Below, one piece after another: positions 27,283 to 29,547 of a stretch of 32,000 nucleotides of DNA; positions within the stretch are counted from its first letter, which is position 1, and each line of letters starts with the position of its first letter. Below the pieces are notes generated by a model that worked only from the letters and a program-made list of their open reading frames with translations, was not told the origin of the DNA and did not search any database. Origin of the DNA: Candidatus Harpocratesius repetitus (GTDB lineage: Archaea; Asgardarchaeota; Lokiarchaeia; Sigyniarchaeales; Promethearchaeaceae); NCBI GenBank assembly GCA_021498095.1, contig JAIZWK010000001.1:2640001-2672000 (forward strand), in the 5' to 3' direction. The position numbers were made by a program, and so were the translations under genes.

Positions 27283-27591
27283 ATGGTCGTAATGCCACGA
27301 AAATCAAAAAACGAAAAGATTGCTGAAAATGAGGAAAATTTTGAACAAGTTAAATATTTGTTAAATATGATAAATGAAGATAATGGAGTTCCAAGGAATA
27401 TTCGTAAAATTGCTCAAGAGTCCTTGGATTTAATTGATACAATTGATGATAAAGATAATACTGCAATAGTTTGTGCCAGTAATTGCATTTCTTTATTAGA
27501 AGACATTGCTCAAGATTTAAATTGTCCACTTCATAGCCGGACTCAAATATATCAAATTTTAAGTTTATTAGAACAAATCCATGATGTATAA
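27283..27591 (+). CDS. UPF0147 family archaeal protein (start possibly ATG 27292)
   Basis: INEDNGVPRNIRKIAQES...ISLLEDIAQDLNCPLHSRTQIYQILSLLE matches D..vPrNIR...D.N.P.h.RT.iw...s.LE. Confidence 0.9.
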   Translation: MVVMPRKSKNEKIAENEENFEQVKYLLNMINEDNGVPRNIRKIAQESLDLIDTIDDKDNTAIVCASNCISLLEDIAQDLNCPLHSRTQIYQILSLLEQIHDV

Positions 27592-27630: not shown

Positions 27631-27740
27631 TCTTGATTTCTCTTGATTTCTCTTAAATTCTCTTAAATTCTCTTAAATTCTCTTAAATTCTCTTGATTTC
27701 TCTTGATTTCTCTTGATTTCTCTTGATTTCTCTTAAATTC
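27631..27740. repeat. Intergenic 10-bp minisatellite x11 with two unit variants
   Basis: X=tcttgatttc, Y=tcttaaattc; order XXYYYYXXXXY; between convergent genes. Confidence 0.97.
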
Positions 27741-27748
27741 TTTCCTTC

Positions 27749-28471
27749 CTAATATTCATATCCTGGTGAATGGAAAAATCCTTCATCTGGTCTTTTCTTA
27801 TCATCTTCATCTAATAACTCATTACGTCGTGCAGCAGCAGGATCATTTCCAACATCAGCTTCAATATATGAAGCTTTCATTATCTTCTTGTAATATTTTC
27901 GTCCTTGATGTAGGTAATAAATATTTTTCAAGTCTCGAAGGGAAATATAACCCCAAAAAGAGAATGGAAGTAAGAAAAAGAGGAAACCAAGCCATTGAAA
28001 GTTAAAAAGTGAAAAAAGATAAGTTGTGAGAAAATAAATTGAAGTAATTAAACTTATAATAAAAAGTATCAATCGTCGTTTTGAATTTCGTTCATATGTA
28101 TTATTTTCTAATGAATTATAACATGAGCAACAAATAACAGGCATAGTTACTCCAAATTTCTCCTTATAGTAAAGACTCATTAAAATTGAAAAGATACGAT
28201 CGATTTTCGCGCCGCAAAGTTGGCACCTTATTCGTAGAGAATTGCGATCTTGTTCTATTTTATCAATTTCTGATTTAGGAAAATAACAATCATCATTATG
28301 ATAATGCTCACAGTGATTGCAATGAAGCATTTTCTCAAATTCATGCGGAAATCGTTTTTTAAGATTTGATTCAATTATTTTATTATAATCGGTTTGTTGG
28401 GTACAATATGGAATTCCATCATCATCAATCGTCCATTCAGGATAAATAATGGAATCATTAGCATCTTTCAT
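27749..28471 (-). CDS. Cys/His-rich putative zinc-binding protein with two C-terminal TM helices
   Basis: CNHCEHYHNDDC, CQLCG and CCSC, then two hydrophobic helices and an acidic tail. Confidence 0.78.
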   Translation of the reverse strand: MKDANDSIIYPEWTIDDDGIPYCTQQTDYNKIIESNLKKRFPHEFEKMLHCNHCEHYHNDDCYFPKSEIDKIEQDRNSLRIRCQLCGAKIDRIFSILMSLYYKEKFGVTMPVICCSCYNSLENNTYERNSKRRLILFIISLITSIYFLTTYLFSLFNFQWLGFLFFLLPFSFWGYISLRDLKNIYYLHQGRKYYKKIMKASYIEADVGNDPAAARRNELLDEDDKKRPDEGFFHSPGYEY

Positions 28472-28665
28472 AGATATATCGATTTCATTTTCTAAATCTT
28501 CCTTTCTTAAAATATTATCCTTGTAATGGACTATTTTTTTCCCCCCAACTTATAATATTTATAAAATTGCGAATTTTTCTAACTAAATTAAAGAATTCTT
28601 TTATAAATAAACTTCTCCTTATATTTTTAAAAAAGGATGAAAAATATTAAAAAAAAGATAAAATA

Positions 28666-28755
28666 CTGCACAGATAATTCAACCAGATTTTACAATCCAT
28701 CCGATGCATCCCATACTTTTTGATGCACCATCATCTTTTGGTTAAAGTAGTGCAT
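28666..28755 (-). promoter_or_regulatory. Eukaryote-like SECIS element in the 3' UTR (core 28698-28734)
   Basis: Minus strand reads AUGAU-GGUGCAUC-AAAAAGUAUGG-GAUGCAUC-GGAUG: a UGAU/GGAU quartet with tandem G.A/A.G pairs, an 8-bp helix and an A-rich apical loop. Lower helices are UUUAACCA/UGGUUGAA and UGCAC/GUGCA. A U8 tract follows at 28649-28656. Confidence 0.85.
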
Positions 28756-28765
28756 TGATGAGATT

Positions 28766-29080
28766 TTAGTAAGTCAAAGAGAGAAATTTATACATTCCCC
28801 TTTTCTCCATATCTATGGTGGCTTTTTCTACCAAAGTTTTCATTTCTTTATCCAAATAGATTGGAAATGGAGCATCTGAAAGAGGATATGGAATAAAATC
28901 CGCTTTCCCCCAATGAAGTTCCGTATTTGAATGAAAGGGATATTCTTGAATTTTCACTTTGACGTCTCTTTGAATACCTCATCAACCTTTAGAACGCGCA
29001 TAGTAAACCAACAATGTAGGATTATCATAGTTTTTTTTGCGACGTTCAAGAAATTCCTTTGCTTGATCAGATATCTTCAT
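28766..29080 (-). CDS. HesB/IscA-like selenoprotein with two adjacent in-frame UGA codons (predicted G-U-U-G), 104 aa
   Basis: GGAGG RBS, ATG at 29080, then MKISDQAKEFLERRKKNYDNPTLLVYYARSKG-TGA-TGA-GIQRDVKVKIQ...PIYLDKEMKTLVEKATID...TY-TAA. The UGAs are at 28984-28982 and 28981-28979. Both halves resemble the HesB/IscA fold, and a SECIS lies downstream. Confidence 0.85.
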
Positions 29081-29547
29081 ATTAATCCTCCATTTTAATT
29101 TTAAGATGCGATCGTATTTGAAGATTTAGGTCTAAAACGCTTGAATTATTGTAGTTTTAATCAGAATTTGAAATTCTCGTCATTAACGCTCATTATGATG
29201 AAAAATCTATGATAATTTGCAATACTTGCAACTTAATTTCTTCCTATAACGAGATGAGAAAACTGGTTCTCATTTTGAAAGATTTCAAAATAATATGAAT
29301 GAAGGTAAAATAAAAAAAAAAAGTTAATTTAATTGAACAAAATCTTGATAATGATAATGATAATTTTTTACTGATCAAATTTGATCAACCACTATCATTG
29401 GTGGTTAAATTAATAATAGATTGAAAGTTTATAATGTTTTGGAAAATATTTGAAGAGATTACGATTGAAACAAGCCAAATATTCACTGATTTGGCTATTT
29501 CAAAGAAATGGAATGAAAAAAAATATTAAAATTTCGGAAATATTATG

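Follow-up and report, generated by a model that had tools for sequence, protein, structure and literature searches.

On the minus strand, a gene in which two in-frame UGA codons stand side by side is followed by a hairpin that is very probably (about 0.92, as judged from sequence comparison) an Asgard eukaryote-like SECIS of type I (lokiSECIS), located in the 3' UTR of the mRNA of a small CC/Se-motif HesB/IscA-like selenoprotein. The first-pass annotation had called it a eukaryote-type SECIS of the Lokiarchaeota kind, and this assignment is borne out by its agreement with the published features of the class, by a leave-one-out match to the covariance model R1, by covariation, by co-occurrence with UGA and by the presence of the Sec machinery in the genome. 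The class itself is not new, being known since 2016, and the candidate is a well-supported fresh example of it. Judged by the accessible text of the papers cited below, what goes beyond the published literature is the gene family served, the two adjacent UGAs and a recurrent third helix. The window, as the term is used here, is the whole stretch of 32,000 nt that was analysed, and all features of the gene and of the element lie on its minus strand.

The gene is made up of the following features:

28766 to 29080, minus strand: coding sequence of the candidate selenoprotein, 104 aa with a G-U-U-G motif, based on its translation, on orthologues and on Cys-Cys homologues
28979 to 28984, minus strand: adjacent in-frame UGA pair, codons 33-34, with 250 nt from the first UGA to the SECIS AUGA
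28768 to 28766, minus strand: UAA stop codon of the gene

The SECIS AUGA begins 31 nt past this stop codon. The parts of the element and of the 3' UTR around it are, in the direction of transcription:

28748 to 28754, minus strand: 5' strand of the outermost helix, UGCAC plus UA, from MFE folds, pairing with 28667-28676
28740 to 28746, minus strand: 5' strand of helix I, UUUAACC, from the fold and a pooled geometry-constrained test
28735 to 28739, minus strand: 5' side of the internal loop, AAAAG, read in the sequence; a loop of 4-5 nt is typical of related elements
28731 to 28734, minus strand: AUGA of the SECIS core, invariant in 18/18 aligned elements
28722 to 28730, minus strand: 5' strand of helix II, UGGUGCAUC, from the sequence, the descriptor, R1 and covariation
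28711 to 28721, minus strand: apical loop AAAAAGUAUGG, 11 nt, starting with AAAAA and ending with G, from the sequence and in keeping with section 11 of PMC4989117
28702 to 28710, minus strand: 3' strand of helix II, GAUGCAUCG, from the sequence, the descriptor and covariation
28700 to 28701, minus strand: GA of the SECIS core, GA in 17/18 aligned elements and AA in one
28685 to 28698, minus strand: mini-hairpin (helix III) GGAUU-GUAA-AAUCU, which separates the core from the 3' strand of helix I, seen in the fold and recurrent in related elements
28678 to 28684, minus strand: 3' strand of helix I, GGUUGAA, from the fold and the pooled geometry-constrained test
28667 to 28676, minus strand: 3' strand of the outermost helix, UA ... 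GUGCA, from MFE folds
28649 to 28656, minus strand: U8 tract, 10 nt past the structure and probably an archaeal oligo-U termination signal

The AUGA...GA core (28734-28731 and 28701-28700) and the terminal U8 tract (28656-28649) were thus found as first described. A sheared G.A/A.G quartet is assigned to the AUGA with the GA, and U28733 stands opposite U28699. Helix II contains the eight Watson-Crick or G-U pairs, one of them G-U, that had been counted before, and it becomes a helix of 9 bp with no mismatch once the closing U.G is included. The AAAAA that had been given as the apical loop is present, but it is just the start of an 11-nt loop, in which the AAA at positions 3-5 is invariant in the alignment of related elements and the penultimate base is G. 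Both lower helices that had been reported, helix I and the outer helix, were found, whereas the mini-hairpin at 28698-28685 had been overlooked; inserted between the GA and the 3' half of helix I, it turns the element into a three-way junction. The outer helix pairs UGCAC (28754-28750) with GUGCA (28671-28667) and is matched only in the orthologue from the same genus, the helix I of which is 14 bp. In 16/18 related elements helix I is followed by five or more consecutive U, which fits an element that is transcribed together with the gene and precedes an oligo-U terminator of the archaeal kind. A scan for sigma-70 promoters and intrinsic terminators, which models no archaeal signals, had no relevant result on the minus strand.

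The Lokiarchaeota SECIS as described by Mariotti et al. 2016 (PMC4989117, section 11) has an AUGA ahead of a 9-bp stem and a GA after it, an 11-nt loop in which the first five bases are mostly A and the last is an ultraconserved G, and a location near the stop codon. Huang et al. 2024 (PMC11227280, section 7) give a looser type I model, which allows an upper stem of 7-15 bp with at most two mismatches. The candidate agrees with all published sequence and geometry features of lokiSECIS and also with the type I model: it has the AUGA, the 9-bp stem, the 11-nt loop with five A and a final G, and the GA, it lies tens of nucleotides from the stop codon, and the Sec machinery of its host is of the archaeal/eukaryotic type without SBP2. 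It differs in the penultimate loop base, which is G while that of the published set is usually A, in serving two adjacent UGAs, and in carrying the mini-hairpin in the 3' internal loop, a third helix of which the main text of either paper makes no mention. It also differs in its host gene, which is of the CC/Se-motif HesB/IscA-like kind (U-U or U-C) and falls outside the seven Asgard families of PMC11227280.

With the form 1 eukaryotic SECIS (RF00031, SECIS_1) the candidate shares the 3'-UTR site, the AUGA/GA non-Watson-Crick quartet between the lower and upper helices, and an unpaired A-run that opens the apical loop. Unlike it, the candidate has no match to RF00031 at E <= 10, and its host has no SBP2 homologue. 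Helix II is, as the first-pass annotation had pointed out, shorter than the eukaryotic one (9 bp versus about 12-14 bp), which is a published hallmark of the Asgard class. Moreover, the candidate has an extra hairpin at a position where the eukaryotic SECIS has an internal loop only.

Bacterial SECIS elements are in-ORF hairpins located directly 3' of the UGA (~11-40 nt) and bound by SelB. The candidate would have in common with them the direction of UGA recoding, and the protein family of its gene (NF041239, CC/Se motif) was first defined in bacteria; the signal of the candidate, unlike theirs, lies 250 nt downstream of the UGA, in the 3' UTR. An in-ORF element of the bacterial kind was looked for in the 66 nt after the UGAs, which fold no better than shuffled sequences (-7.8 versus -7.0 +/- 2.4 kcal/mol). 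The euryarchaeal SECIS of Methanococcales and Methanopyrus shares the archaeal 3'-UTR location, but the candidate is without the GAA_A bulge between two short GC-rich stems: neither the sequence nor the fold of the 3' UTR shows such a bulge with consecutive upper-stem G-C pairs, and there was no Rfam match. The earlier view that the element is unlike both the methanogen and the bacterial SECIS agrees with these results. The SECIS of methanogen VhuD and HdrA also carry AUGA_[G/A]A (PMC4989117, PMC11227280).

The covariance model R1 was trained on seven elements of other genes, with the candidate left out. With filters off, its top match in the window was 28696-28740 on the minus strand (28.8 bits, E ~1e-4), followed by a runner-up of 16.2 bits, and the candidate stem aligns to the model only via compensatory pairs. 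Of 20 selenoprotein loci, 18 were matched by R1, among them the VhuD gene of the host genome, which is unrelated. Because the training elements belong to homologous genes, part of the score could reflect shared ancestry, but this explanation is disfavoured by the differing stem sequences and by the VhuD match. A search of 28400-29200 with Rfam cmscan at E <= 10 gave no SECIS family, only weak snoRNA and CRISPR-DR noise. This result was to be expected and is uninformative, since lokiSECIS escapes every archaeal, bacterial and eukaryotic SECIS tool (PMC4989117). Recognition by a covariance model, as proposed in the first-pass annotation, was therefore obtained with a model built from Lokiarchaeial elements and not with those of Rfam, which miss the published lokiSECIS as well.

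Among the homologues, nearly every gene copy is followed within ~1-40 nt of its stop codon by an AUGA, a hairpin of 28-29 nt and a GA, and the stem sequences vary from copy to copy. An R1 search of the genomes of the family revealed more U-C paralogues and a VhuU-like gene, with the element just past each stop. The element is present after unrelated UGA-containing genes, namely VhuD, VhuU, SelD and those of the UU/UC family. True Cys-Cys homologues were obtained by a profile search of 1.8 billion proteins, which yielded four distinct loci with TGY-TGY under table 11. At these four loci no R1 match was found 3' of the gene; the best score, 11.6 bits (E 0.34), belongs to a site that spans the start codon of the gene. 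Three of the four have no room for the element, since a convergent gene overlaps the stop or begins no more than ~30 nt from it. Within the sampled loci, the element tracks the UGA and not the protein family.

The 3' UTR of SelD (C1:3802287, minus strand, locus L006) has ACGA where AUGA or GUGA would be expected. The hairpin is otherwise SECIS-like, with an 8-bp stem, a loop starting with GUAAAC and then CGA, and gave no R1 match. The ACGA may be a core variant that is absent from the list in PMC11227280, or the true core may be located elsewhere.

The genome encodes a tRNA-Sec (59.8 bits, above the Rfam threshold), SepSecS, SelD with one in-frame TGA, VhuD with two TGA, and a SelB-like factor (247 bits, above the NCBIfam cut-off; in the region 672882-673940 of the genome). 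SBP2, which recognises the eukaryotic SECIS, is a large L7Ae-domain protein. Only two L7Ae-domain ORFs, both small (131 and 126 aa), were found in the genome, indicating that SBP2 is absent from it, in agreement with section 12 of PMC4989117.

The three rival explanations that were considered together take up only a minor share of the probability. The one that survives best, although improbable, is that the hairpin is an L7Ae-bound kink-turn or some other 3'-UTR element of stability or translation, the UGA being decoded by another route. The core does resemble a kink-turn, the genome has the two small L7Ae-domain proteins and no SBP2, and an archaeal SECIS-binding protein is not known, according to the discussion in PMC4989117. 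Against it, the element stands behind UGA genes of unrelated families (VhuD, VhuU, SelD and UU/UC), and none was found behind the four Cys-form loci. Furthermore, no other conserved structure was seen and no significant hairpin follows directly after the UGAs, and binding of L7Ae would in any case be compatible with the function of a SECIS.

A slightly weaker rival is a chance or terminator-associated AT-rich hairpin, in which the AUGA and GA are fortuitous and have no role in recoding. Such a reading could accommodate the unremarkable folding energy of the 119-nt region (thermodynamic z-score -1.27), the U8 tract behind the structure and the abundance of loosely defined hairpins, as loose descriptors gave 196 matches in the 31%-GC genome versus 118 in the control. 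It is at odds with the strict published descriptor (AUGA, 9 bp, an 11-nt loop AAA..G, and GA), which, with both strands of the 4.36-Mb genome scanned, had only two matches, the candidate and one other, and none in six control genomes (one reversed, five block-shuffled). The second match (genome position 2588935) is taken as chance because it lies inside a CDS without UGA. The chance reading is also at odds with the occurrence of equivalents with differing stems after nearly every UGA homologue, with none found after the four Cys homologues, and with the retention of the core AUGA and GA while the stem varies.

The hairpin stem is a conserved, covarying AUGA/GA element. In the alignment of 18 elements, 93% of cells are paired and all eight stem pairs (8/8) have changed on both sides by compensatory substitution, the covariation score being 0.92 versus 0.29 for shuffled alignments (0/500) and 0.08-0.27 for slid partners. 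RNAalifold independently predicts the same helix II stem. The covariation among orthologous UTRs that the first-pass annotation had named as a check is thus present, and it speaks against a chance hairpin.

The gene was found by a six-frame search in 10 of 161 genomes of the class, all within the window's own family. The TGA-TGA is kept in eight of these genomes at protein identities of 35-70%, and the protein sequence of the orthologues is conserved downstream of the pair too. A paralogous subfamily has TGA-TGC instead (the U-C form), with one copy in the host genome. The single-Sec paralogue of the host genome, with G-U-C-G, is located at C1:1470523-1470807 on the minus strand (L032); its SECIS lies 16 nt past the stop and is the strongest genomic match to R1 (48.6 bits). 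In a search for homologous proteins, the database record of the gene in the host genome was a 63-aa C-terminal fragment alone. Public gene calls of the UU/UC family (P0003-P0009) often read G-W-C-G or G-W-W-G, the UGA evidently having been read as Trp under an alternative code, so that selenoproteins are hidden in the databases. Several U-C paralogues and one U-U orthologue (L077-L080, L020) have a UGA stop 1-17 nt ahead of the SECIS AUGA; in the same mRNA, UGA would then mean Sec far from the SECIS and apparently stop next to it.

That the gene is simply broken or split by two stops, or that UGA is reassigned genome-wide, with the downstream structure irrelevant, is hardly credible: gene callers do split the gene, leaving the C-terminal fragment on record, but the TGA-TGA stands at the same position in the eight genomes, down to 35% identity and with both sides of the protein conserved, and the neighbouring MetRS and a 610-aa ORF are intact under table 11, which shows UGA to be a normal stop elsewhere. 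The closest relatives of this MetRS are Promethearchaeia/Promethearchaeota (Lokiarchaeial) MAGs, and the Asgard assignment made in the first-pass annotation therefore holds.

If the element is a lokiSECIS, as preferred here, the mRNA would extend from the gene through the SECIS to the U8 tract, and helix II, of 9 bp, would rest on a kink-turn-like non-Watson-Crick quartet formed by the AUGA and GA. Recognition of the core and of the A-rich 11-nt loop may fall to the Sec-specific elongation factor, whether by direct contact or via an adaptor, both routes being proposed because no SBP2-like protein is encoded. With Sec-tRNA(Sec) delivered by this factor, the ribosome would decode as Sec the two UGAs that lie 250 nt upstream of the element, and the outcome would be a G-Sec-Sec-G product instead of a 32-residue fragment.

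The lower part of the element was compared with its relatives under a fixed geometry for helix I, in which the 5' strand ends 2-6 nt before the AUGA and the 3' strand starts 12-24 nt after the GA. Summed over 13 non-redundant elements, the length of helix I was 100, versus 57-59 +/- 5 for shuffled or swapped flanks (0/1000), whereas an unconstrained test, sequence by sequence, was not significant in the AT-rich flanks. The suggestion that a long lower stem might support the decoding of consecutive UGAs did not hold, as helix I is 3-14 bp in the UGA-UGA orthologues and not longer than in the single-UGA (U-C) paralogues.

The recurrent third helix is a secondary observation with moderate support. 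A small hairpin can form at this place in most of the elements, and its summed stem length was 83, versus 58 +/- 7.5 in shuffled sequences (0/1000) and 64 in windows 150 nt further downstream. A GCA motif between the GA and helix I occurs in 11/19 windows, versus 5.2 in shuffles and 2/19 far windows. The loop of the mini-hairpin is often GNRA-like or GCA-bearing, being GUAA in the candidate and GCAA or UGCAA in many others. The mini-hairpin can form in all four SECIS found in the host genome (U-U, U-C, VhuD and SelD), and it recurs across gene families in the Lokiarchaeial family (L015, L022, L027, L081, L083 and others). A tentative possibility, rather doubtful at present, is that the working SECIS in this family is a three-way junction, the third helix of which could dock an archaeal SECIS-binding factor and so replace recognition by SBP2. 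As a structural detail, the third helix is testable.

The U-U/U-C gene family is absent from the seven Asgard selenoprotein families of PMC11227280 and from the 2026 review PMC13188914, as far as their accessible text extends. The Asgard repertoire would thus gain a selenoprotein family, in U-U and U-C forms, beyond the seven of the 2024 survey, and the SECIS would make a gene that pipelines split a bona fide selenoprotein gene. The candidate also enlarges the sample of Asgard SECIS, which have been proposed to stand, in evolution, between the Sec decoding of archaea and that of eukaryotes, and offers a natural instance of a single SECIS for two adjacent UGAs. With the gene and its 3' UTR together measuring ~430 nt, it is a compact case for the study of SECIS action without SBP2.

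The next gene downstream (27749-28471, minus strand) encodes a Cys-rich protein of 240 aa with several CxxC and predicted membrane segments. Ahead of the start of this gene, after the U8 tract, lie TATA-like boxes, which suggest that it is probably transcribed from a promoter of its own and not together with the selenoprotein gene. It is separated from a convergent gene (27283-27591, plus strand) by a tandem repeat at 27631-27734 of the window, composed of 10.4 copies of a 10-nt unit, TCTTGATTTC, and its variant TCTTAAATTC. A different tandem repeat, of 20 nt, lies behind the SelD SECIS elsewhere in the genome.
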